From Candidatus Saccharimonadota bacterium (GTDB taxonomy: Bacteria; Patescibacteriota; Saccharimonadia; Saccharimonadales; JACDBH01), in contig JACDBH010000002.1 of the NCBI GenBank assembly GCA_013694995.1, positions 17,425-81,424 on the forward strand: a stretch of DNA of 64,000 nucleotides, given 5' to 3'. A program made the position numbers and the translations under genes. Positions within the stretch are counted from its first letter, which is position 1, and every line of letters begins with the position of its first letter. Shown one piece after another: positions 3,472 to 60,749 of the stretch. The notes below the pieces were generated by a model. That model was not told where the DNA came from, did not search any database, and saw nothing but the letters and a program-made list of their open reading frames with translations.

Positions 3472-3525
3472 ACTGACCTAAAAGTATAGGGGCGAGGAAA
3501 TAAGGTTATAGAACTTCCTAGCCGG

Positions 3526-3560
3526 AAACCCTGTACCCTAAACCCTAAACCCTTTATACT
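3526..3560 (+). promoter_or_regulatory. AAACCCTGTACCCT element + TATACT -10 in front of rseP
   Basis: TGTACC (3532-3537) lies 17 nt from TATACT (3555-3560), with 8 nt to the ATG. Shares a 14-nt core with the elements at 7424 and 42654. Confidence 0.45.
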
Positions 3561-3568
3561 ATTACCAC

Positions 3569-4714
3569 ATGGCAATTTTCTATTTTGTTTTGGGGCTGCT
3601 GTTATTTATTGGCTTGGTCTTAGTCCACGAGTGGGGCCATTTTATTATGGCCCGACGTAATGGCGTTGACGTTGAGGAATTTGGTCTCGGTTTCCCGCCG
3701 CGCGCCAAAATTTTAGCTAAGAAAAATGGTACTATCTACAGTCTTAACTGGCTACCGCTTGGCGGCTTCGTAAAGCTAAAGGGCGAGCATGATATTGATA
3801 CTGAAAAGGGAACTTTTGGTGCCGCTGGCACCAAGGCAAAAATCAAGATTATGCTGGCGGGAGTAGTCATGAATTTGCTTACTGCTTGGTTAATATTCAC
3901 AGTCGTTGCGCTTATTGGTATGCCTAAAATTATCAAAAACCAATTTAGCGTAGGGTCTGATACAAAAATAACCCAAAGTCCCCTAAATGAAGGAGTTATA
4001 AAAATAGGTGCAGTTGTTGAGGGCTCGCCGGCAGAGCGCGCCGGTATTTTAGTAGAAGACCAACTTGTTTCCATTAACAAAGTGAGTATCAACGAGCCAG
4101 AAAGTGTCAGCGAACAAACCGAAGCCAATAAAGGTAAAACGGTCTTAGTTGAATTTAGACGCGGCGAAGAGACAATATCTAAAGATATAACGCTTAATGA
4201 AACATCGCCATACTTAGGTATTGGCCCTTATTCTGCTCAAACAGGTTTTGAGGTTAGGCGGTCTACCTGGTCGGCACCGATTGTCGCAGTTGGGGTGTCT
4301 AAGGATTTCACGCTTGCAACTCTCAATGGCCTAGGCAAGGCCCTCAAGGGCCTAGGCTCTGCAATTGCTGGTTTAATCACTGGCAACGATACTGCGCGCA
4401 AGGAGGGGCAGGCCGAAGCAAGTGACCAAGTATCAGGACCGGTTGGCATTTTTGCCGTTCTTTATGAAATTTCACGGCAAGGCATTGGCTTGGTGCTATT
4501 TATTATCGGTTTGATATCCTTGACACTGGCTATTATGAACGTCTTACCAATACCGGCACTTGATGGTGGACGGTTATTTGTAACACTTCTTTATAGGGCA
4601 GTCCGACGTCCGCTCAAACCGAGTACAGAGGATAGGATACACGGCACTGGTTTCGCAGTTTTAATGTTACTTTTTGTTCTAATAACAATTGTTGATGTAA
4701 AGCGCTTTTTGTAA
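3569..4714 (+). CDS. rseP: RIP site-2 metalloprotease, M50 family (RseP-like)
   Basis: 381 aa. HEWGHF (HExxH) in the first TM helix, a central PDZ-like segment, and C-terminal NVLPIPALDGG. Confidence 0.9.
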   Translation: MAIFYFVLGLLLFIGLVLVHEWGHFIMARRNGVDVEEFGLGFPPRAKILAKKNGTIYSLNWLPLGGFVKLKGEHDIDTEKGTFGAAGTKAKIKIMLAGVVMNLLTAWLIFTVVALIGMPKIIKNQFSVGSDTKITQSPLNEGVIKIGAVVEGSPAERAGILVEDQLVSINKVSINEPESVSEQTEANKGKTVLVEFRRGEETISKDITLNETSPYLGIGPYSAQTGFEVRRSTWSAPIVAVGVSKDFTLATLNGLGKALKGLGSAIAGLITGNDTARKEGQAEASDQVSGPVGIFAVLYEISRQGIGLVLFIIGLISLTLAIMNVLPIPALDGGRLFVTLLYRAVRRPLKPSTEDRIHGTGFAVLMLLFVLITIVDVKRFL

Positions 4715-5525: not shown

Positions 5526-6782
5526 ATGAAGATTTCAGAAATTTTTACCAAAACAATCAAAGAAGCACCGGCAGATGAGCAAGCTAAGAACGCGATTGTA
5601 CTTATCCGCGCTGGTTATATTCATAAGGAGATGGCAGGGGTCTATACATTTCTACCGTTCGGTCTAAGGGTGTTGGATAAAATCTGTAACATTATTCGCG
5701 AAGAAATGAACGCCATAGGAGGGCAGGAACTAAAGCTAACGACGCTGCAAGATCCCGAAATTTGGAAGGCTACCGATCGCTGGGATGATGAAAAGGTAGA
5801 TGTTTGGTTCAAGACTAAATTAAAGAATGACAGTGAGCTGGGCTTAGGCCCAACCCACGAGGAACCGCTTATCCGTGCGGTTAAAAAGTACATTAAATCC
5901 TATAAAGATCTCCCATTCCTGGCATATCAGATCCAAACCAAATTTCGAAACGAAACCAGAGCTAAGAGCGGGGTGATGCGCGGCCGCGAATTCTTGATGA
6001 AGGATTTGTACAGTTTTGCACGCACGGAGGCAGAGCATGAAGAGCTGTATGAGCGTATCAAGCATGCCTACGGCAAGGTCTACGAGCGTCTCGGTGTCGG
6101 AGAACAGACATTTTTAACATTTGCTAGCGGAGGCATGTTTAGTGAATTCAGCCATGAGTTTCAAACAGTCTGCGACGCTGGTGAAGATACCATATTCTTA
6201 GATCGCACCAAGAAAATTGCTGTTAATGAAGAAGTGAATAACGATGAAGTGCTAGCTAGTCTTGGCTTAAACCGTGAAAATTTGGAGGAGGTCAAAGCTG
6301 CTGAAGTTGGCAATATCTTTACGCTTAAGGATAAATTTTCAAAGCCTTTAGGTTTAACATTCGTTGACGAGCTGGACCAGGAACAAAACGTACTTATGGG
6401 CTGTTATGGCATTGGGCCGTCGCGCTTAATGGGGGTTATAACGGAACTGCTATCTGATGACAAAGGGCTTGTCTGGCCGGAAGCGATTGCACCATATCAG
6501 CTATACCTGGTACGTTTAGGTCAAGAAGCAGAAATAGTCAAAGCGGCCGACTCATTATATTCGGAACTTAAAGATGCAAATATCGATGTTTTGTATGATG
6601 ACAGGGATGCGCGTGCCGGTGAGAAATTTGCGGATGCTGATTTATTGGGAATCCCGTGGCGGGCTGTAATTAGCGCCAAGACTGTGGAGCAAAACAGCGT
6701 CGAGCTAAAAGCTCGCACTTCAGCTGACATGGCCCTCATACCTGTTTCTGAACTCAAGAATCGGCTTGTCAAACTAAGATAG
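5526..6782 (+). CDS. proS: Prolyl-tRNA synthetase, short form without INS editing domain
   Basis: 418 aa. ProRS N-terminus (IRAGYIHKEMAGVYTFLPFGLRV), class II motifs and a C-terminal anticodon-binding domain. Confidence 0.92.
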   Translation: MKISEIFTKTIKEAPADEQAKNAIVLIRAGYIHKEMAGVYTFLPFGLRVLDKICNIIREEMNAIGGQELKLTTLQDPEIWKATDRWDDEKVDVWFKTKLKNDSELGLGPTHEEPLIRAVKKYIKSYKDLPFLAYQIQTKFRNETRAKSGVMRGREFLMKDLYSFARTEAEHEELYERIKHAYGKVYERLGVGEQTFLTFASGGMFSEFSHEFQTVCDAGEDTIFLDRTKKIAVNEEVNNDEVLASLGLNRENLEEVKAAEVGNIFTLKDKFSKPLGLTFVDELDQEQNVLMGCYGIGPSRLMGVITELLSDDKGLVWPEAIAPYQLYLVRLGQEAEIVKAADSLYSELKDANIDVLYDDRDARAGEKFADADLLGIPWRAVISAKTVEQNSVELKARTSADMALIPVSELKNRLVKLR

Positions 6783-7322: not shown

Positions 7323-7405
7323 ATTTTATTTTGGCGCATTGCTTTAATAGTCAACTGTGCCGTCCTGCATTACCGAAATAAAGTGAGAGTAAAGTGCTTA
7401 TAAAC

Positions 7406-7446
7406 CCCTAGACCCTTGACCTTAAACCCTGTACCCTATAAATCAA
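7406..7446 (+). promoter_or_regulatory. Conserved promoter element in front of lysS
   Basis: ACCTTAAACCCTGTACCCTATAAATC (7419-7444) matches 42649-42674 at 25 of 26 positions. TAGACC-17-TACCCT geometry. Confidence 0.5.
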
Positions 7447-8955
7447 ATGGCTACACTAAAAGATTTCCGGGATGAGAGGCTGCGTAAATTAGCTGAGCTT
7501 AAAGAACTTGGCATTAATCCTTATCCTGCTAAATCAACTAGAACGCATTATCTAGTGGAAATAACCGAGCGCTTCGAGGAGTTGCTGGGGCAACAGGTTA
7601 CTATCGTAGGACGTATTAAATCCATACGTAAGTTTGGTAAAATTGCTTTCATTGTTATCAAGGACGAATCTGGCGAGGTGCAGTTATTCTGGACCCAAAC
7701 AGAAAAGGCCGATGCAGACCACAAAAATAGCGAACTTTTACTTAACAACATTGCATTACTTGACACCGGCGATTTTGTTGAAAGTACAGGACCTGTTATT
7801 AAGACTCAGACCGGTGAAATATCCATTGAGGTAAAGAAGTTTCGATTGCTTACAAAGTCACTACGGCCAATGCCCAATGAACAGGAAGGATTCACTGACA
7901 AAGAACAGCGGATGCGCCGTCGCTATGTTGATATGAACGTCAACCGAGACGTGCATGATAGGTTTGTGCGCCGAAGCAAGTTTTGGCAGGCAACACGGGA
8001 TTTCCTGAACGAAAAAGGCTTCTTAGAAGTTAATATCCCAGTTCTAGAACATACGACAGGTGGAGCTGATGCTAATCCATTCGTAACTCATATGGACGCG
8101 CTGGATCAGGATTTTTATTTAAGAATTTCGCACGAATTGCCGCTGAAGCGACTCATCGGTGCCGGATTTGAGAAAGTTTATGACATTGGCCCCCGTTTCC
8201 GAAACGAGAACTATAGTGATGAACATTTGCCAGAACATGTAGCCATGGAATGGTACTGGGCCTATACCGATTGGGAGAAGGGCATGGAACTGATGGAAGA
8301 AATGTTCAGTGAAGTGTTACTGAAAACTTTCGGCAAGTTGAAATTTACCATTGATGGCAAAGAAGTTGATATGAGTAAAGCCTGGGAGCGTTGGGACTAT
8401 GCAGGCGTGATTCGAGATCATTTTAATTTGGACGTTTTTAACGCCTCTGTTGAGGATGTGAAGGCTAAGTTGCAAGAGCATGGCTTGGTGGTGGAAAAAA
8501 CTGAAAATGTAGCTCGAGGTATAGACAAGCTCTGGAAAAAAGTCCGTGCAAACGTCGTGGGACCAATCTGGTTAATTAATACACCGGCTTTTATTTCACC
8601 TTTATCGAAAACAAGTGATGATAACCCAAACACTACTCAGCGCGCCCAAGCGGTTATTGCCGGCAGTGAACTATGCAACTTATTTTCGGAACTTAATGAT
8701 CCTATTGACCAACTTAGCCGCTTTACGCAGCAGGAAGCCATGCGTAGTGAGGGTGATAACGAAGCAATGATGCTCGATATCGATTATGTTGAGATGCTCG
8801 AATATGGTATGCCACCGACTTGCGGCCTAGGTTATTCCGAAAGATTATTCTGGATTTTTGAAGGTGTTACTGCCCGCGAAGGCGTGCCATTCCCTCAACT
8901 CAAAATGGAAATCGACAGTGTCACTAAATCCATCTATCCTGATCTAAAACTTTAA
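7447..8955 (+). CDS. lysS: Lysyl-tRNA synthetase, class II
   Basis: 502 aa. N-terminal OB fold, then YDIGPRFRNE and GLGYSERL class II motifs. Confidence 0.95.
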   Translation: MATLKDFRDERLRKLAELKELGINPYPAKSTRTHYLVEITERFEELLGQQVTIVGRIKSIRKFGKIAFIVIKDESGEVQLFWTQTEKADADHKNSELLLNNIALLDTGDFVESTGPVIKTQTGEISIEVKKFRLLTKSLRPMPNEQEGFTDKEQRMRRRYVDMNVNRDVHDRFVRRSKFWQATRDFLNEKGFLEVNIPVLEHTTGGADANPFVTHMDALDQDFYLRISHELPLKRLIGAGFEKVYDIGPRFRNENYSDEHLPEHVAMEWYWAYTDWEKGMELMEEMFSEVLLKTFGKLKFTIDGKEVDMSKAWERWDYAGVIRDHFNLDVFNASVEDVKAKLQEHGLVVEKTENVARGIDKLWKKVRANVVGPIWLINTPAFISPLSKTSDDNPNTTQRAQAVIAGSELCNLFSELNDPIDQLSRFTQQEAMRSEGDNEAMMLDIDYVEMLEYGMPPTCGLGYSERLFWIFEGVTAREGVPFPQLKMEIDSVTKSIYPDLKL

Positions 8956-13345: not shown

Positions 13346-14047
13346 ATGAGATTACACCGGTTTTATGTTAGCCCCGACACGGCCGAATTAAGCCATGAGT
13401 TATGGCTGCGCGATGATTCTTTGCGTAACCAATGGTTTAAAGTACTACGCTACAGGGTTGGTGATGAAATAATCCTCTTTGACGGGGTCGAACACGATCG
13501 ACTTTATAAGATAAACCGTATCGAGCCTGATGCAGTACAGCTGCAACTAGTCACTGATTTTGAACGTAAACTTCCTGCTAAGCACATATATCTATTTTTT
13601 AGCCTACTCAAAAAAGATAAGAATGACTGGGTTTTACAAAAGTGTACTGAACTGGGAGTGCGCAATTTCGTGCCCATCATAGCTGAACGTAGCGAAAAAA
13701 CTGGTTTTAACATCGAACGGGCGGAAAAAATTGTCATAGAAGCGGCCGAACAGTGTGGAAGATCCGATATACCACATATCCGCGAACCTTTAACCATTAC
13801 CGAAGCGCTAGGTGAGTATAAAGACAAAGTAGATCTTCTTATATGCGATGAAGCTATCTCAGTTACTAACTCCCCACTACCAACTACCAATAATCCCACG
13901 GGGATTTTAATAGGTCCAGAAGGCGGCTGGACCGAAAATGAGCTTAATCTGTTTAAGCAATACAGTCTTAATCATCTGCATTTAGGCCAGCTAACTCTCC
14001 GTGCTGAAACAGCTGCTGTAGTAGCATCAAACAAGTTATTAACATAA
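13346..14047 (+). CDS. rsmE: 16S rRNA (uracil1498-N3)-methyltransferase RsmE family
   Basis: Starts MRLHRFYV. C-terminal GILIGPEGGWTENEL motif. The track ORF start (13283) would overlap the previous gene and was trimmed. Confidence 0.88.
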   Translation: MRLHRFYVSPDTAELSHELWLRDDSLRNQWFKVLRYRVGDEIILFDGVEHDRLYKINRIEPDAVQLQLVTDFERKLPAKHIYLFFSLLKKDKNDWVLQKCTELGVRNFVPIIAERSEKTGFNIERAEKIVIEAAEQCGRSDIPHIREPLTITEALGEYKDKVDLLICDEAISVTNSPLPTTNNPTGILIGPEGGWTENELNLFKQYSLNHLHLGQLTLRAETAAVVASNKLLT

Positions 14048-17421: not shown

Positions 17422-17516
17422 TTAATTTTACAACACTATAACATCTCCCAGGGAAGTTTTTTACGCCCAACAGTGGTACAATATTTTGGACTACAAAGAC
17501 AGTAAGAGGCCATGTA

Positions 17517-41996: not shown

Positions 41997-42635
41997 ATGC
42001 GACCTTTTAAGAAAAATAAACCAGAGATAAAGCAACGCGGCAATTACGCCTTCATTGACAGCCAAAACCTTAACCTTGGAACCCAGAAAATGGGCTGGAA
42101 GATGGATTGGAAGAAATTTAGGGAATTCCTTAGGGATCAGTACAATGTCGAAAAAGCCTTCATGTTTATCGGTTACATGCCAGACTATGAAAAATTATAT
42201 GACCAGTTGCATTCCCAAGGCTACTTGGTAGTTTTAAAACCGACGCTTGAAATGTTTGCAACTGAGTCGAAAACGACTGAAGCAGGGGGGTTGATGTCCG
42301 AGGAAAACACCAAAGAGCCAGAGGAGAAAAAAATAGCTCCGAAGGGTAACGTTGATGCCGACTTGGTACTCTACGTTTTAAAGGAAATGCCCAACTACCA
42401 TAAGGCAGTAGTAGTATCGGGAGATGGAGATTTCTACTCAATGATTGAATATTTAGACCAAAAGCAAAAATTACACAAGCTGCTGACGCCAAACTGGCAA
42501 TATTCCAGTCTTTTAAAGCCCTATGAACGTTATATCGAGCGCCTTGACCAAAAGCGCAAGGAGCTGCGCTACCATGACCATCACAAGCGGAAGCCAAACC
42601 AGAAGCCGGAACCTCAACAAGGCTCACGGCATTAA
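41997..42635 (+). CDS. NYN (LabA-like) domain protein with basic tail
   Basis: 212 aa. YAFIDSQNLNLG and VVSGDGDF motifs. Lys/His-rich C-terminus. Confidence 0.75.
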   Translation: MRPFKKNKPEIKQRGNYAFIDSQNLNLGTQKMGWKMDWKKFREFLRDQYNVEKAFMFIGYMPDYEKLYDQLHSQGYLVVLKPTLEMFATESKTTEAGGLMSEENTKEPEEKKIAPKGNVDADLVLYVLKEMPNYHKAVVVSGDGDFYSMIEYLDQKQKLHKLLTPNWQYSSLLKPYERYIERLDQKRKELRYHDHHKRKPNQKPEPQQGSRH

Positions 42636-42636
42636 T

Positions 42637-42674
42637 CCTGTACCCGTAACCTTAAACCCTGTACTCTATAAATC
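42637..42674 (+). promoter_or_regulatory. Conserved promoter element in front of the PIF1-like helicase gene
   Basis: Two CCTGTACYC copies. TGTACC (42639-42644) lies 17 nt from TACTCT (42662-42667), with 7 nt to the ATG. Confidence 0.5.
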
Positions 42675-44213
42675 ATGACCCAAGCGGAGGCTCTGGCTAT
42701 TTTAGAGTCGGGCCAGTCGGTGCTGCTGACTGGTGCGGCCGGTACTGGCAAGACTTATGTTTTGAATCAGTTTATTCGGCGCGCCCGAGCGAGTGGTAAG
42801 AATGTGGCGGTTACAGCTACTACCGGACTGGCGGCAACTCACCTGAACGGCACAACTATTCACGCCTGGTCGGGTATTGGTGTGCGCGACTTAATTGACG
42901 AAGGATTTTTTCATAAAATGAGCAAGCAGCGCACTGACCTTATTAATAAAGCGGACATATTAATTATCGATGAAGTCAGCATGTTACATGACTTCCGCTT
43001 GGATATGGTTGAAGAAATCACCCACTCAGTACGAGGTGGTGAGAGACCTTTTGGAGGACTGCAGGTAATATTGTGTGGTGATTTTTTCCAGCTGCCACCA
43101 ATAAATAGACGCGATAACCGGCAGGGAAGTTTTGTAACAGGATCGCAAACCTGGAAGAACGGCGCCTTTACAGTCTGTTACCTGGAAGAACAATTCCGCC
43201 AGAGCGAAGATAATGCCTACGGAGCGATTTTAAATGGCATACGAGCGGGGCAACTGACCCGTAGCCAGCTTGAGGCCTTGCAGCAGCGATCTGAAGGAGT
43301 TGCCAGTCCATTTACTACCCGTACACGGCTGTTAACTATCAACGTTGATGTCGACGCTATCAATGCAGAGCATTTGGAGGACTTAAAAGAAAAAAACTAT
43401 GAATATAAGATGGAAACCAGCGGTCGTAAGCAATATATTGAAACCCTGATGCGTTCCTGCCTGGCACCCGAAACATTGAACCTCAAACGGGGAGCACTGG
43501 TAATGTGTATCAAAAATAGTCAAGACAGGAAATATGTAAATGGCAGTTTAGGAATAGTGGAGGATTTTGAGCCTTACACCAATTATCCGGTTGTTAAACT
43601 TACAAATAACAAAGAAATTACCATTAAACCCGAATCCTGGGAACTAATGGACGGCGACAAGCGACGGGCGACGGTTACGCAGCTGCCGCTACGGCTAGCT
43701 TGGGCCATTACCGTTCATAAGAGTCAAGGCATGACGCTCGATGCTGCTCAGATTGATTTGAGCAAGGCCTTTGTCGAAGGCATGGGCTATGTAGCATTAA
43801 GTCGGGTACGCGGACTAAAATATTTAATTTTGGACGGGTTGAACGGTATGGCGCTACGTACGAGCCCGCTTGCGCGGCAGCTTGATATCGAACTGCGCGC
43901 TCGCAGCCAGACTACACGGCAAGAATACAAAGATGTGATTGATGACTGGCATAAAAGAGAAGAGCTGCGGAAGAATGAACCAGAAAAGCCGGTCAAAACA
44001 GGGAAAAGCTGGGCAGAAAAGTTAGAAAAAATGCGTGAGGAATACCCAAATGCCTATAGGCCATGGGCGGAGGCAGAGGATGTAAAGCTTGTTAAATTAT
44101 TTGCTGGTGATGTCAGTGTTAAATCTTTAAGTAAGATGATGGGGCGGCATCCCGGGTCTATCCGAGCCCGGCTTAAGAAGCATTTCGGTGAAGATGTAGT
44201 TTTTAAAAAATAG
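42675..44213 (+). CDS. PIF1/RecD-family SF1B helicase with C-terminal HTH-like extension
   Basis: 512 aa. GAAGTGKTY Walker A, IIDEVSM, CGDFFQLPP and ITVHKSQG motifs. Confidence 0.85.
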   Translation: MTQAEALAILESGQSVLLTGAAGTGKTYVLNQFIRRARASGKNVAVTATTGLAATHLNGTTIHAWSGIGVRDLIDEGFFHKMSKQRTDLINKADILIIDEVSMLHDFRLDMVEEITHSVRGGERPFGGLQVILCGDFFQLPPINRRDNRQGSFVTGSQTWKNGAFTVCYLEEQFRQSEDNAYGAILNGIRAGQLTRSQLEALQQRSEGVASPFTTRTRLLTINVDVDAINAEHLEDLKEKNYEYKMETSGRKQYIETLMRSCLAPETLNLKRGALVMCIKNSQDRKYVNGSLGIVEDFEPYTNYPVVKLTNNKEITIKPESWELMDGDKRRATVTQLPLRLAWAITVHKSQGMTLDAAQIDLSKAFVEGMGYVALSRVRGLKYLILDGLNGMALRTSPLARQLDIELRARSQTTRQEYKDVIDDWHKREELRKNEPEKPVKTGKSWAEKLEKMREEYPNAYRPWAEAEDVKLVKLFAGDVSVKSLSKMMGRHPGSIRARLKKHFGEDVVFKK

Positions 44214-48040: not shown

Positions 48041-48092
48041 TTGCGTATGGGTAAGTGTGGGGAGTATGCTCATATCAGTGGGTAAAAGTGGG
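48041..48092 (+). promoter_or_regulatory. Putative Pmra promoter overlapping TGGG direct repeats (MraZ-box-like)
   Basis: TTGCGT (48041-48046) and TATGCT (48065-48070). TGGG at 48048, 48058, 48079 and 48089, i.e. two pairs with 10-bp spacing. Confidence 0.5.
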
Positions 48093-48160
48093 TAGCAAAA
48101 ATAGCTACTCGTAAAACAAAAAAACAAAAACCACTGTAAGTTAAATCAAAGGACCAATAG

Positions 48161-48514: not shown

Positions 48515-48790
48515 AAATAAGCCAGCAGGCAATGATCTTTTACAATCAGCGATGCAAGCATTAGAAACTATAAAAACCGACTCGAGGTCAGCGAATCGGC
48601 AGCCAGCATGTGGCACCTATGGGGCACCACATTTAAAAACCCTAGAACCTTACTTTAAAAAACACCTCCCAAAACTCCACCTCACACAATAAGTCTCTCA
48701 AAACTTACGGTCTGGATGATGGTAAAAGATAGTAGACGGTCTCGAAACCGGCTCTCGTAAATCCTTTTACCGCTATAATTGTCCAGGCTG

Positions 48791-48894
48791 AACAAAAACA
48801 AAAACACCAAAAAAACAAAAAGTTGGCTGCTGGTTCGGTGACCTTGCAAAAAAACAAAAAGCAAAAACATGTCCAAAAACAAAAACACAAACAA
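48791..48894 (+). repeat. CA/A-rich (CAAAAA)n tracts flanking the rsmH start
   Basis: At least 9 CAAAAA-type units in three blocks (48791-48821, 48847-48868, 48874-48894) around a GC-rich 25-nt core. TATAAT at 48774-48779 upstream. Confidence 0.6.
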
Positions 48895-55554: not shown

Positions 55555-56451
55555 ATGTTCCACCGCCGCCAGAGCGTACCGCGTCAGCGTCCGGACAGTA
55601 TCCGTCCCAGAGGCACTAAGGGCGTTTTTTCTTATTACAGTACCCCAAAAAGCAATGTCAGGCCGGGGAATAGAATGGAAAAGGCCATAGATAACATCGA
55701 AGTTGGGAGTAAAGCTCGTTCATTACCGGTACTAGTTGCCTTATCAGTAATAATATTAAGCATCTTAGCTAGCCTAACGGTTTCTATCCGTCCTAGTGTT
55801 AGTTTTGTCAAAGGTCAGACGGCACTTTATCGCAGCCAGTCGGATTATGAGAATGCCGCCCAAAATATATTAAGTAGGAAATTATCGAACCAAACGAAAC
55901 TTACAATCAACACCGGTAACGTAGAAGAGGAACTTGTAAACAGTTATCCGGAATTAGCAGCTGCAGCCTTTCGTCTGCCGGTTATTGGCCGCCGTGCCAA
56001 TCTTGTACTAGAGCTGAGGTTGCCGGCTATAATCCTGACTACCACTAGTAAGGCATATATACTCGACGACAGCGGGCTAATTGTAAGCGACTTGCAAAGT
56101 CTGGCAGTAGAGGCCAGAAGCGGCCTGCCGGTAGTACTGGATCAGGGAGGACTAGATCTTAAGGTTGGCGACCAGGCGGTTACAAGTGAAACGGTACGAT
56201 TTATACAAGCTATAACTGCGCAGCTTCAGGCCCAAAACCTGGTAGCTTCCCAGTTGACACTACCGGCTTCGGCCAATCAGCTCGACATCATACTTAAAGA
56301 TACTCCTTATTACATCAAAACCGACCTTTCAGGAGATGCAAGGGTGCAACTGGGCAGCTATTTAGCAGTCAAGGGCAGACTACTTAAAGATAATATTACA
56401 CCTGCCGAATATATTGACGTCAGGGTAGAGGAGAAGGTGTTCTATAAGTAA
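55555..56451 (+). CDS. ftsQ: FtsQ/DivIB-like cell division protein
   Basis: 298 aa. Basic cytoplasmic N-terminus, one TM helix, POTRA-like then beta-rich domain. Position after murG. Confidence 0.75.
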   Translation: MFHRRQSVPRQRPDSIRPRGTKGVFSYYSTPKSNVRPGNRMEKAIDNIEVGSKARSLPVLVALSVIILSILASLTVSIRPSVSFVKGQTALYRSQSDYENAAQNILSRKLSNQTKLTINTGNVEEELVNSYPELAAAAFRLPVIGRRANLVLELRLPAIILTTTSKAYILDDSGLIVSDLQSLAVEARSGLPVVLDQGGLDLKVGDQAVTSETVRFIQAITAQLQAQNLVASQLTLPASANQLDIILKDTPYYIKTDLSGDARVQLGSYLAVKGRLLKDNITPAEYIDVRVEEKVFYK

Positions 56452-56668
56452 AGGGTAGAGGGTTAAAGATAAAACGTCGTTAGTAAGCACAGCTGTACTT
56501 AAATCTAAATTCTTGGCCCAACGCCTAGAGAGCAATAAGGGTAGTGCCCCGTTACCCTGCGGGTGTTCATATTATGTTTATATTGTAGGTTGCAGTAAAA
56601 AAACATATAAAAATATAATTATATAAAAAAGCAAATATTGCAAATAGGGAAGGATAAGGTAGGGGTGT

Positions 56669-56708
56669 GGAAAAATCGTGAAAACCATATAGAAAGCAAG
56701 TTTTCACG
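56669..56708 (-). terminator. Intrinsic terminator on the minus strand inside the long spacer
   Basis: CGTGAAAAC (56677-56685) / GTTTTCACG (56700-56708), perfect 9-bp stem. On the minus strand it is followed by ATTTTTCC. Confidence 0.5.
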
Positions 56709-56836
56709 GTAAATAGCAAATACTTAGGCAATATGCTTATAAAATACTATGCAGGTGCTTAAGGCTCTAAATTAAAGTAATGTGAACCGCCTATGCAAAT
56801 AATCCTAAGTTATAAGCATAAATACTATGATAATAG

Positions 56837-56859
56837 TTAAAACTCCCCTGTAGTAGGGG
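56837..56859 (-). terminator. Weak hairpin + U-run on the minus strand downstream of the ATPase gene
   Basis: CCCCT / AGGGG 5-bp stem (56845-56859). Minus-strand tail AGTTTTAA. Confidence 0.3.
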
Positions 56860-56889
56860 TATAGTAAATCATTTACAAATGATATATAA

Positions 56890-56917
56890 GAGTCGTAAAA
56901 TATACATTGTGCGACGT
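56890..56917. other. dif-like 28-bp imperfect palindrome (11-6-11) with TGTATA/TATACA centre
   Basis: GAGTCGTAAAA-TATACA-TTGTGCGACGT. The inner 9-nt arms are complementary at 7 of 9 positions. The central hexamer equals that of E. coli dif as I recall it. Confidence 0.25.
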
Positions 56918-57014
56918 TCTTAATATACCTGCTTTCATTCCCCTAACACTTTCCTAATTACTGGCATTTACTTATTTATTTTTAATTTTTAATTCTTTTT
57001 GCCAATCACCCGCT

Positions 57015-59699: not shown

Positions 59700-60749
59700 T
59701 TACTTTTCGTCTGTGAGTGAGTAGGTGGCCTTGGCGACTCGTTTAAACTGGGGTTTACCCTGTAGGTTCAAAAGGATAGTTGTCTCTTTGACATAGCGGT
59801 TCTTAAGTACACGCTTGACGATTTCGTCACGATGCAGTGGCTCGCCTGCCTTTTTTAGTACCTCGGTAATAATATCGGCGACGGTTCCCTTCTTATAGCC
59901 CCATTCTTTAAGAGCGTAGATACCACGGCCGATTAATATAAAGCGGTCATCTTTAATAAGCTCGTTATGGATAGCCTGGGTAGTGACGTCCTTGCGCTTA
60001 AAGCTTGAGTCTTTAATTGCAGCTGCAATCTCATTAAAGTGCATGTGTTTACCGTTTTCGTGCAAAATAACATAGATTTTATCGCGAATGTTCTTAGGAT
60101 TGACCATTGGCCATTTAATTAGGCCCCAGCGACCATTAAGGTTGGCAATTTGCTTGCTGATGCTAGCTAGTGCCCGGGTGTGCGCGACGCTTTTGTCTTT
60201 GACGGTCTCGGCTACTATTTCAATCCCGGCCGGTACACCGATTTTCTTAATCGCTTCAACTGTCGCTGTTACCTGATCTTTAAGGGTGTTCTTCTCATGT
60301 TCGCTGGCAATGGCTACAGCATGGTAAAAAAAGTCGTTTTCATCAAGTACGCTAAGTTTTGGGCTGAGGTTGGCTAAGAATGAGACCTGAGCTTGGTCAA
60401 TCTTGCTATTAGCTTTAGTTAAACGTGCGCTCAAGTCACTGACACGAGCAGCCATGCCTAAGCGATGTAGTTCCTGAACCAGTGTTTCCTGAAGCTTTAA
60501 AACATTAACAAAGTCACCCTTCTGAGCACTAGCCTTAAGCTTAGTTATAACTGCTTTCTCTAGCTGACGAACGCGTTCACGAGTAATACCCAAGAGTTCG
60601 CCTATTTGTTCCAATGTCTCTTTGCGGTCAAATAATCCAAAACGACGTGAAATAATTTCGCGCTCGCGCTCGCGCTCGATGGTATCAAGCACACTTCGAA
60701 CGACAGATTCGATTTGGGGTTCCGCAGCTTTAGGAGTAGTTTCGGCCAT
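59700..60749 (-). CDS. Sigma-70 region-4-like HTH fused to two HARE-HTH-like domains
   Basis: 349 aa. REREIISRRFGL..TLEQIGELLGITRERVRQLEKAVITKL is region 4.2-like. MHFNEIAAAI...DDRFILIGRGIYALKEWGY and PLHRDEIVKRVL...FKRVAKATYSL are HARE-like. Confidence 0.7.
   Translation of the reverse strand: MAETTPKAAEPQIESVVRSVLDTIEREREREIISRRFGLFDRKETLEQIGELLGITRERVRQLEKAVITKLKASAQKGDFVNVLKLQETLVQELHRLGMAARVSDLSARLTKANSKIDQAQVSFLANLSPKLSVLDENDFFYHAVAIASEHEKNTLKDQVTATVEAIKKIGVPAGIEIVAETVKDKSVAHTRALASISKQIANLNGRWGLIKWPMVNPKNIRDKIYVILHENGKHMHFNEIAAAIKDSSFKRKDVTTQAIHNELIKDDRFILIGRGIYALKEWGYKKGTVADIITEVLKKAGEPLHRDEIVKRVLKNRYVKETTILLNLQGKPQFKRVAKATYSLTDEK

Follow-up and report, generated by a model that had tools for sequence, protein, structure and literature searches.

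The 64,000-nt stretch analysed here (the window; positions 17,425 to 81,424 of contig JACDBH010000002.1) belongs to the metagenome-assembled genome (MAG) of an uncultured member of Saccharibacteria and carries the lysine--tRNA ligase gene lysS, a helicase gene of the Pif1 family (pif1) and the site-2 protease gene rseP. A preliminary description had reported a near-identical 26-nt promoter-proximal element shared by lysS and the helicase gene, with a third copy before rseP. Below, we describe these elements as arrays of imperfect 7-bp repeats and discuss the evidence that each probably forms the core promoter of a leaderless mRNA. The features at the three sites are listed with promoter scores from a position weight matrix (PWM) trained on 207 promoters of the clade, a training set in which TAnnnT was required.

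3526-3560, plus strand: rseP array, AAACCCT GTACCCT AAACCCT AAACCCT followed by the -10 unit TTATACT; lag-7 autocorrelation 17/21
3532-3537, plus strand: -35-like TGTACC of rseP, 17 nt before TATACT
3555-3560, plus strand: -10 TATACT of rseP, with the 8-nt discriminator ATTACCAC and ATG at 3569; PWM total 7.35
3569-4714, plus strand: rseP, site-2 protease (Peptidase_M50 and PDZ)
7403-7437, plus strand: lysS array, AACCCCT AGACCCT TGACCTT AAACCCT GTACCCT; the final unit holds the proposed -10, and the array is in register with six others
7409-7414, plus strand: -35-like TAGACC of lysS, across the heptamer junction between T and AGACC, 17 nt before TACCCT; clade PWM -35 score 2.14 (mean of the training set 0.53)
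7432-7437, plus strand: proposed -10 TACCCT of lysS, with the 9-nt discriminator ATAAATCAA (7438-7446) and ATG at 7447; PWM total 6.44, in the top 0.1% of random positions
7447-8955, plus strand: lysS, lysine--tRNA ligase, predicted leaderless (Pfam tRNA_anti-codon and tRNA-synt_2)
42633-42667, plus strand: pif1 array, TAATCCT GTACCCG TAACCTT AAACCCT GTACTCT
42639-42644, plus strand: -35-like TGTACC of pif1, 17 nt before TACTCT
42662-42667, plus strand: proposed -10 TACTCT of pif1, with the 7-nt discriminator ATAAATC (42668-42674) and ATG at 42675; PWM total 6.52, in the top 0.1% of random positions
42675-44213, plus strand: pif1, Pif1-family helicase (PF05970 PIF1, E = 3.4e-37, and a Pif1 2B domain); the start MTQ is conserved in orthologues

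Heptamer arrays upstream of lysS, pif1 and rseP

The two 26-mers, ACCTTAAACCCTGTACCCTATAAATC (7419-7444) at lysS and ACCTTAAACCCTGTACTCTATAAATC (42649-42674) at pif1, differ at a single position, as first reported, and none of 100 shuffles yielded a pair of 26-mers matching with three or fewer mismatches. Both had been said to abut a start codon; this holds for pif1 (ATG 42675) but not for lysS, where AA intervenes before the ATG at 7447. The third copy lies where it had been described, with AAACCCTGTACCCT followed by AAACCCTAAACCCT at 3526-3553. The core AAACCCTGTACYCT occurs in three exact and three two-mismatch copies, a total of six against 0.55 expected that none of 100 shuffles reached. 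The geometry recognised in the preliminary description (TnnACC, 17 nt, TAC(C/T)CT or TATACT, 7-9 nt, ATG) holds at lysS, pif1 and rseP.

Underlying this geometry is a repeat. Each site consists of four imperfect tandem NNACCCT heptamers, followed by a -10 heptamer in the same register, from which 7-9 nt lead to the ATG. According to Tandem Repeats Finder the period is 7, with 4.0 copies at rseP, 4.7 at lysS and a unit match of 69-80%. The second, related boxes that had been noted upstream of each 26-mer are additional units of the repeat; that of pif1, CCTGTACCC, lies at 42637-42645 as described, while that of lysS, CCTAGACCC, lies at 7407-7415, one base from the position 7406 given for it. 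The pif1 array and the stop codon of the NYN gene before it overlap; together with its 7-nt discriminator the array takes up the whole 39-nt intergenic region in the open reading frame (ORF) map. The first reading of the sequence did not notice that the repeat has a period of 7 bp or that the genes look leaderless, and it overlooked a fourth promoter copy, which lies outside the window, as well as the copies away from promoters; these points are taken up below.

Chance is ruled out as the origin of the similarity by the shuffles and by the exact-repeat background, in which 83 kb gives chance 15-17-mers and never a 25/26 match. An assembly artefact or contamination with eukaryotic telomere sequence (CCCTAAACCCTAAACCC) is likewise ruled out: bacterial genes flank the arrays, and an independent Logan assembly made from the same sequencing run, SRR11719867, agrees base for base upstream of lysS and rseP. 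A DNA uptake sequence was rejected, the pentamer not being over-represented (33 ACCCT and 53 AGGGT in 64 kb), and no known RNA families or tRNAs were found in the window.

Leaderless context and promoter signature

About a third of the genes in this MAG look leaderless, judging by their start-proximal motifs: of the 63 window genes, 23 lack a Shine-Dalgarno (SD) sequence and carry TAnnnT at 5-11 nt upstream of the start, and 18 have an SD-like sequence. Loci of related Saccharibacteria were gathered through LysS and Pif1 relatives and carry L-numbers as labels, of which L083 and L085 denote the source genome. In 80 related loci the occurrence of TAnnnT has a sharp peak at 6-11 nt upstream of ATG, and lysS in most of 80 Saccharibacteria loci has a -10 box 6-9 nt upstream of its ATG and a conserved MATLKD N-terminus. 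The clade thus matches the leaderless signature of the 'group C' genomes of GeneMarkS-2 (PMC6028130); a full-text search of a library of papers found none on leaderless transcription or promoter architecture in Saccharibacteria or Patescibacteria.

The three arrays fit this context. No SD-like tetramer occurs in the 18 nt before the lysS, pif1 and rseP starts. The elements are promoter-proximal, as had been claimed, at genes without a Shine-Dalgarno sequence. The -10 hexamers stand at the leaderless distance, TACCCT 9 nt, TACTCT 7 nt and TATACT 8 nt before the start. In the clade PWM the -10 is extended (TnTGnTAtAaT) and often has C at position five, and the -35 is weak (T at -23 and G at -21, a 17-nt spacer). 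On this matrix the arrays total 6.4-7.4, against a training interquartile range of 6.3-9.8, fall in the top 0.1% of random positions and have -35 scores above average; in their scores they resemble ordinary leaderless promoters of the clade. TAGACC and TGTACC, at 17 nt, score above the clade mean but match only three to four of the six positions of TTGACA. The alternative -10 hexamers TATAAA and CTATAA (lysS) and ATAAAT (pif1, -12.3) were rejected, as their PWM scores are far below those of TAC(C/T)CT and they lie too near the ATG. The geometry first proposed is the one in keeping with the promoter model of the clade, and it is the reading with the best support; at pif1, and at lysS of the related loci L088 and L089, no hexamer other than the proposed -10 fits.

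The arrays might instead be transcribed as leaders, from a start further upstream or by read-through from greA, the NYN gene or uppS, with the C-rich (NNACCCU)n aiding SD-independent initiation or binding an RNA-binding protein. Heptamer repeats near SD-less start codons have been interpreted in this way (TAACTGA in Beggiatoaceae; PMC4679880). The 39-nt spacer of pif1 has no terminator, and co-transcription with the NYN gene is likely; in L052, moreover, an (AATTAGG)12 array between a TACAAT box and the ATG is clearly leader. For the window sites, however, a leader is very improbable, given that the last unit always supplies TAnnnT at the leaderless distance of the clade with the ATG in heptad register, that array-less lysS and rseP orthologues are plainly leaderless, that the leadered genes of this genome carry SD-like sequences and that no good promoter was found further upstream in the lysS spacer.

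Three further observations concern sequences before start codons. The L052 array (6277-6363) is a perfect (AATTAGG) x12.4 upstream of a class-II aminoacyl-tRNA synthetase gene, recurs at a contig end of a related species (L078:1-47) and has AGGA in every unit; it looks like a true simple sequence repeat (SSR) in a leader. Many Pif1 genes of soil Saccharibacteria (L096-L143) share a conserved leader, ~40 nt upstream of the start, that reads TGnTACAAT, ~12 nt, GAGAGGG, ~8 nt, start. To judge from these motifs they are leadered genes with a strong SD, unlike the leaderless arrangement predicted for pif1 in the window. Finally, A-rich CAAAAAC/CAAAAAG repeats (window 48790-48870) directly precede the rsmH start (48869), and similar repeats precede starts at L043:4473, L060:2143 and L067:118.

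Conservation and origin of the arrays

The lysS array is retained between species. In the nearest LysS relatives with greA-lysS synteny, L088 (81% LysS identity) and L089 (80%), an array stands at the same place, reading TTACCCT AAACCCC GTACCCT GTACCCT ATACACA ATG and TTACCCT AGACCCC GTACCCT GTAACCT ATAAACA ATG, respectively. The sole -10 at a workable distance is TACCCT in the former and TAACCT in the latter, each 7 nt from the ATG. Over the same evolutionary distance, the terminator hairpin and the SD of a control spacer, the one before greA, are also preserved, indicating that conservation here marks functional non-coding elements and not recent divergence. Other relatives differ: L087 (82% LysS identity) has two units only, and in L004 (80%) lysS has no array and a HAD-family gene has one.

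The pif1 array appears to have a different history. Its upstream sequence matches that of lysS at 25 of 26 and 33 of 38 positions, and the encoded proteins are unrelated. Common to the two window copies, and missing from L088 and L089, are the ATAAATC discriminator, the deviant unit ACCTT and the pair AAACCCT-GTACYCT. No NNACCCT array was found upstream of 40 Pif1 orthologues (at most 76% identity), so timing is coarse; these genes have either TATACT-type leaderless promoters or the conserved TACAAT...GAGAGGG leader. Most simply, the promoter of pif1 is read as a recent copy, made within this genome, of the lysS promoter, a case of promoter reuse, and the earlier suggestion of a duplicated promoter cassette is supported for this pair. 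A shared regulator had been named as the alternative, on the ground that conservation extends through spacer and discriminator. That conservation is seen, but the spacer appears conserved because it is built of the same heptamer repeat; repetition and paralogy account for most of the conservation, which does not establish a shared regulator. Among the 15 billion proteins of the collection searched there are no close strains in which copy number could be compared: at 90% identity LysS, Pif1 and RseP each stand alone.

An array family at probable promoters

A fourth promoter copy became visible when the contig was extended to 83 kb. It lies outside the window at L083:6290-6331, before a 174-aa gene whose product has no significant Pfam match, and reads CAACCCT TGACCCT CAACCCT TTACCCT AGATACT TATGCTT ATG. 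Together, seven promoters from four related species align in register, with four units, a -10 unit, 7-9 nt and the start: lysS, pif1, rseP and the 174-aa gene of this genome, lysS of L088 and of L089, and the HAD-family gene of L004, the start of which was read by eye as a GTG 8 nt after TATAAT. Random scatter relative to genes, named at the outset as the finding that would speak against a promoter element, is not what the promoter copies of this genome show: all four are sense-oriented and in register with the ATG. There is no obvious functional link among the genes downstream of the arrays.

In 12 arrays with 49 units in all, conservation is 90-96% at each of positions 3-7 (ACCCT), and positions 1-2 are near random (~1.9 bits of entropy), with the values for positions 4-7 partly inflated by the use of a CCCT search to find some of the arrays. 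Adjacent units nearly always differ at NN and not in ACCCT. One reading of this pattern is that the arrays are operators, in which a trans-acting factor reads ACCCT/AGGGT every 7 bp and lysS, pif1, rseP and the 174-aa gene form a small regulon. This would be compatible with promoter function, although binding would most simply repress, as the sites overlap the -35 to -10 region. Slippage products decaying neutrally would not leave ACCCT conserved and NN free; the common core occurs at no fewer than four promoters of unrelated genes and in four species, the lysS spacer is kept across ~80% LysS identity, and the TTTTGAT heptads of PctxAB, which recruit ToxR, ToxT and H-NS (bioRxiv 10.1101/2021.05.14.444153), are a precedent. 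Nevertheless, we regard a regulon of this kind as unlikely. The genes lack an obvious functional connection and no factor was identified, heptads also occur in prmC coding loops and after stop codons, and the CCCT ascertainment noted above tempers the conservation. At the same promoters, furthermore, relatives carry quite different units (CTGTAAA, CCTAGAA, CTATAAT, TTGCCCT), and one conserved regulator cannot cover them all.

A candidate reader, and a candidate only, is the 349-aa protein encoded at 59700-60749 on the minus strand, which combines an N-terminal Sigma70_r4 helix-turn-helix (residues 27-72) with a C-terminal HARE-HTH domain and has no sigma regions 2/3. The architecture is unusual, and a role in reading the -35-like repeats is speculative.

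Arrays away from promoters

The family is not confined to promoters. Units on the G-rich strand lie 3' of ftsQ and in the convergent htrA/prmC spacer, and two arrays lie within prmC. The corresponding features of the window are as follows.

3484-3497, plus strand: G-rich segment GTATAGGGGCGAGG in the uppS-rseP spacer, a 14-nt exact repeat of L085:6907-6920 (window approximately -2771) in the htrA/prmC G-rich array
56452-56465, minus strand: inverted units TAACCCT CTACCCT directly 3' of the ftsQ stop codon, with a further AGGGTAGAGG at 56422-56431 within the 3' end of ftsQ

The inverted copy that had been reported after ftsQ, AGGGTAGAGGGTTAAAG at 56452-56468, does stand immediately 3' of the stop codon. 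It is not a promoter copy, because the minus strand has no gene downstream, and its units have no significant fold. It opens a 563-nt AT-rich gap (56452-57014) between the convergent ftsQ and a DUF87/TrwB-type ATPase gene. The gap holds no ORF above 54 aa, matches nothing in Rfam and could be an unannotated RNA or a remnant.

Base pairing is possible between the G-rich segment before rseP and the 3' end of the array of that gene, for which the RNA fold of -23.2 kcal/mol (z = -2.1) is weak evidence. Pairing of this kind, together with the G-tracts of the arrays, brings in a reading in which the sequence acts through non-B structure: a G-quadruplex (G4) on the template G strand, an i-motif on the C strand, or a hairpin that terminates the upstream gene and insulates the promoter. 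All canonical G4 motifs of the 83-kb contig (G3 N1-7, four tracts) are arrays, three against 0.41 expected; lysS would add a fourth only with an 11-nt loop, and the template strand is the G strand at three promoter-associated copies. The inverted arrays of L004 fold at -44.1 kcal/mol (z = -4.8) with the next promoter array as their 3' arm, and the spacers of rseP and htrA/prmC have weak folds (z = -2.1 and -1.7). The potential to form a G4 is not shared by all copies, however; rseP has four G3 tracts with loops of 1-7 nt, but pif1 has two G3 tracts and L089 three, and AT-rich units of relatives (CTGTAAA, CCTAGAA) cannot form a G4. The lysS and pif1 spacers have no significant fold (z = -0.4 and -1.1). 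An open complex melts only ~13 bp, which also counts against a structural role, and we consider it very unlikely.

In L004 (14030-14103), (AGGGTNN)4 and (NNACCCT)4, inverted with respect to each other, lie directly 3' of the msrA stop codon, the latter being the promoter array of the HAD-family gene, and the hairpin looks like a compact terminator-promoter module.

Two known repeat classes were considered and rejected. Repetitive extragenic palindromes and bacterial interspersed mosaic elements with REP-associated tyrosine transposases (REP/BIME with RAYT) do not fit, as the lysS and pif1 copies have neither a palindrome nor a significant fold and no array lies beside a Y1_Tnp gene. The contig of the window does encode one Y1_Tnp protein of IS200/IS605 or RAYT type (L085:1-581, contig ~11374-11954), which has no adjoining ACCCT arrays. 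An MraZ operator does not fit either, since the arrays are spaced at 7 bp and lack GTG, as opposed to GTGGG-type repeats at ~10 bp. What look like MraZ operator boxes are GTGGG(T/G)A repeats with a 10-nt period (AGTGTGGGGAG ... AGTGGGTAAAAGTGGGTAGC) at 48046-48098, ~65-115 nt upstream of mraZ (48161).

Period-7 arrays across the clade

In 1.47 Mb of related loci, period-7 arrays of at least three copies number 29 in intergenic and 14 in coding DNA, though ~90% of the DNA is coding; other periods have no intergenic bias. In the 50 nt before starts, lag-7 self-similarity reaches at least 16/21 in six cases, against at most one for any other lag (4-11). The units vary between relatives: CTGTAAA precedes lysS in L006, L011 and L031, CCTAGAA is found in L014 and CTATAAT in L056, and TTGCCCT precedes rseP in L074. 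Read by eye, the arrays with other units (L005, L006, L014, L031, L074) are in register with the -10 and have three to four units upstream, a span that would be about that of the region contacted by polymerase. Distant Pif1-centred loci (478 kb) have almost no period-7 arrays, indicating that the trait is confined to a sub-clade.

Period-7 DNA also recurs within genes. The prmC gene of the source genome (L085:6953-7822, minus strand; window approximately -2724 to -1855) holds sense CTACACC CTACAAC CTACAGC CTACACC and antisense CACCCT TTACCCT AAACTCT AAACCCG, in loops where orthologues have gaps of 4-10 aa. Further prmC arrays lie at L031:1536-1970, L013:1144-1170 and L029:1180-1210, so that prmC-loop arrays are found in at least four species. 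In two genomes they belong to the same unit family as the promoter arrays of that genome (NNACCCT in the source; CTGTAAA in L031, as at its lysS). In an rsmE-like 16S rRNA methyltransferase gene, four species have period-7 DNA at the same position, encoding a variable loop (window 13864-13890, L004:15249-15277, L009:14006-14036 and L010:13639-13663), where the unit is of TATCAAA type except in the window, which has TACCAAC. Recurrence in the prmC and rsmE loops hints at a mutational process besides selection.

Such a process alone, a bias towards 7-nt slippage or micro-duplication, might leave tolerated by-products with no function beyond a pre-existing -10. As summarised in PMC4679880, heptanucleotides are the most abundant of the long SSRs of 5-11 nt in most surveyed prokaryotes, and slippage has been proposed (Mrazek 2007). 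The loops in which the arrays lie, in prmC and the rsmE-like gene, are indel-prone; the near-perfect CCTAGAA x3.4 and AATTAGG x12.4 resemble fresh slippage products, and the -10 context CCTGTAnnCT has a 7-nt self-repeat that could seed slippage. We nonetheless hold a purely neutral origin to be extremely unlikely, because neighbouring NNACCCT units differ at NN and almost never in ACCCT, all seven promoters have the same length of 4+1 units, the lysS array is kept in more than one species, and the promoter copies all have the same orientation and register to the ATG.

A bolder proposal is that of a 'heptad code', in which a lineage-specific factor or templated process would read or lay NNACCCT, or other units in sister lineages, and so make portable 4+1 promoters that could be placed before unrelated leaderless genes; the Sigma70_r4/HARE-HTH protein (59700-60749) would be one candidate for the factor. 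We think this quite unlikely. If true, it would mean a dedicated promoter-generating or promoter-reading system in a reduced genome, not merely repetitive sigma-70 promoters, with insertions in multiples of 21 nt in the tolerant loops of prmC and rsmE as a side effect.

A probable core promoter built from tandem heptamers

The explanation we favour, and consider reasonably probable from the sequence comparisons above, is that each array, with its tandem 7-bp repeats, serves as the core promoter of a leaderless mRNA, and that the pif1 promoter was copied from that of lysS. The last unit would supply the -10 (TACCCT, TACTCT or TATACT), retaining T-12, A-11 and T-7. Since this -10 stands 7-9 nt upstream of the start codon, the first transcribed base would be the A of the ATG or a neighbour of it. 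Three units further up, the heptamer junction would provide the -35-like TnnACC at the optimal spacing of 17 nt, which is automatic, because 6 + 17 = 23 = 3x7 + 2. The arrays form a lineage-specific family; the lysS array is orthologously retained in related species, and the rseP array would have been added upstream of the ancestral TTATACT -10 of that gene. Anatomy, register, conservation and paralogy can be seen in the sequences, whereas we infer that transcription starts at the ATG, that RNA polymerase uses these hexamers and how the copy was made.

Several observations weigh against this model. Firstly, rseP orthologues at 72-77% identity (L004, L158-L160) have the -10 only and no array; those of L004, L009, L010, L005, L008 and L011 keep it as C(C)TTTATACT or CTGTATACT. 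Secondly, arrays of the same family occur at sites with no expected promoter (3' of ftsQ, in the htrA/prmC spacer and twice in prmC). The hexamers themselves are also imperfect: a generic sigma-70 consensus scan requiring 9/12 matches calls none of the three sites, TACCCT and TACTCT are weak -10s with a C at position 4 that only 7% of the training set have, and the -10 score is partly circular through the requirement for TAnnnT. Finally, the 90-96% conservation of ACCCT with a free NN exceeds what a promoter needs. Promoter function and RNA polymerase alone do not require that ACCCT be conserved. A heptad-reading factor or a DNA structure is therefore a possible cause of this conservation in addition to the core promoter, because neither RNA polymerase nor slippage with neutral decay explains the pattern.

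Comparison with known systems

We see the element as a lineage-specific version of two known phenomena, leaderless promoters and start-codon-proximal heptamer repeats. Leaderless promoters of Actinobacteria and Deinococcus likewise have a Pribnow-type TAnnnT 6-10 nt upstream and no SD, a -35 that is weak or dispensable and, commonly, an extended -10 (PMC6028130). Unlike in those promoters, the entire region from -42 to -7 is here a tandem 7-bp repeat, and the -10 is often a C-rich TAC(C/T)CT.

The closest repeats are the TAACTGA heptamers that Beggiatoaceae, Cyanobacteria and Bacteroidetes carry just before start codons and that have no assigned function (MacGregor 2015, PMC4679880). These too are two to six forward tandem heptamers near the start codons of unrelated, often essential, SD-less genes, with occasional copies in ORFs. 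At least two forward heptamers near the start are likewise present at the three window sites and at one more on the contig. The repeats differ in that the unit here is NNACCCT, with two free positions and a register with the -10 and ATG, in the proposed action, which is on transcription and not translation, and in the phylum, which belongs to the candidate phyla radiation (CPR). None of NNACCCT, CTGTAAA, CCTAGAA, CTATAAT and TTGCCCT is a rotation of TAACTGA. No paper linking Saccharibacteria with heptamer repeats was found in the library searched.

In the ctx heptads, (TTTTGAT)n, 7-bp tandem units also form or abut the core promoter; they are read by the DNA-binding proteins ToxR, ToxT and H-NS, and their copy number matters (bioRxiv 10.1101/2021.05.14.444153). 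They are near-perfect, AT-rich and strain-variable and serve a single virulence operon with known binders, whereas the arrays described here are imperfect, have a fixed 4+1 units and precede housekeeping genes. Phase-variable SSRs, such as the poly-G of uspA1 and the AGAT of uspA2 in Moraxella as outlined in PMC4679880, also place short repeats within promoter elements or between them and the start. The units here are, in contrast, non-identical, the housekeeping genes are essential and one pair of assemblies is identical; the near-identical, slippage-prone units of a contingency locus are absent.

The relationship between lysS and pif1 resembles promoter reuse (Nijveen, Matus-Garcia and van Passel 2012, PMC3575422), in which near-identical sequences lie upstream of non-homologous genes with no recognisable mobile element. 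Both the similarity upstream of non-homologous genes and the absence of the array from orthologues of the recipient, Pif1, are found here. The likeness, which is drawn without the criteria of that survey, is limited by the length of the segment, only ~38-47 bp, and the repeat family could itself promote gene conversion.

Implications for Saccharibacteria

Very little has been learnt so far about the way in which Saccharibacteria and other CPR bacteria, with their tiny genomes and few recognisable regulators, organise transcription. Our statements on the function of the arrays are drawn from sequence. If they are true, leaderless housekeeping genes in part of this lineage have core promoters made up entirely of a 7-bp repeat, and such a promoter can be copied to another gene. 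The regularity of ACCCT at 7-bp spacing, together with the heptads in protein loops, points to a DNA-binding factor or an unusual mutational process. The arrays would, moreover, offer a case of promoter birth and movement without mobile elements, as well as a concrete promoter model for the genetically tractable Saccharibacteria and a compact, portable promoter for their engineering.

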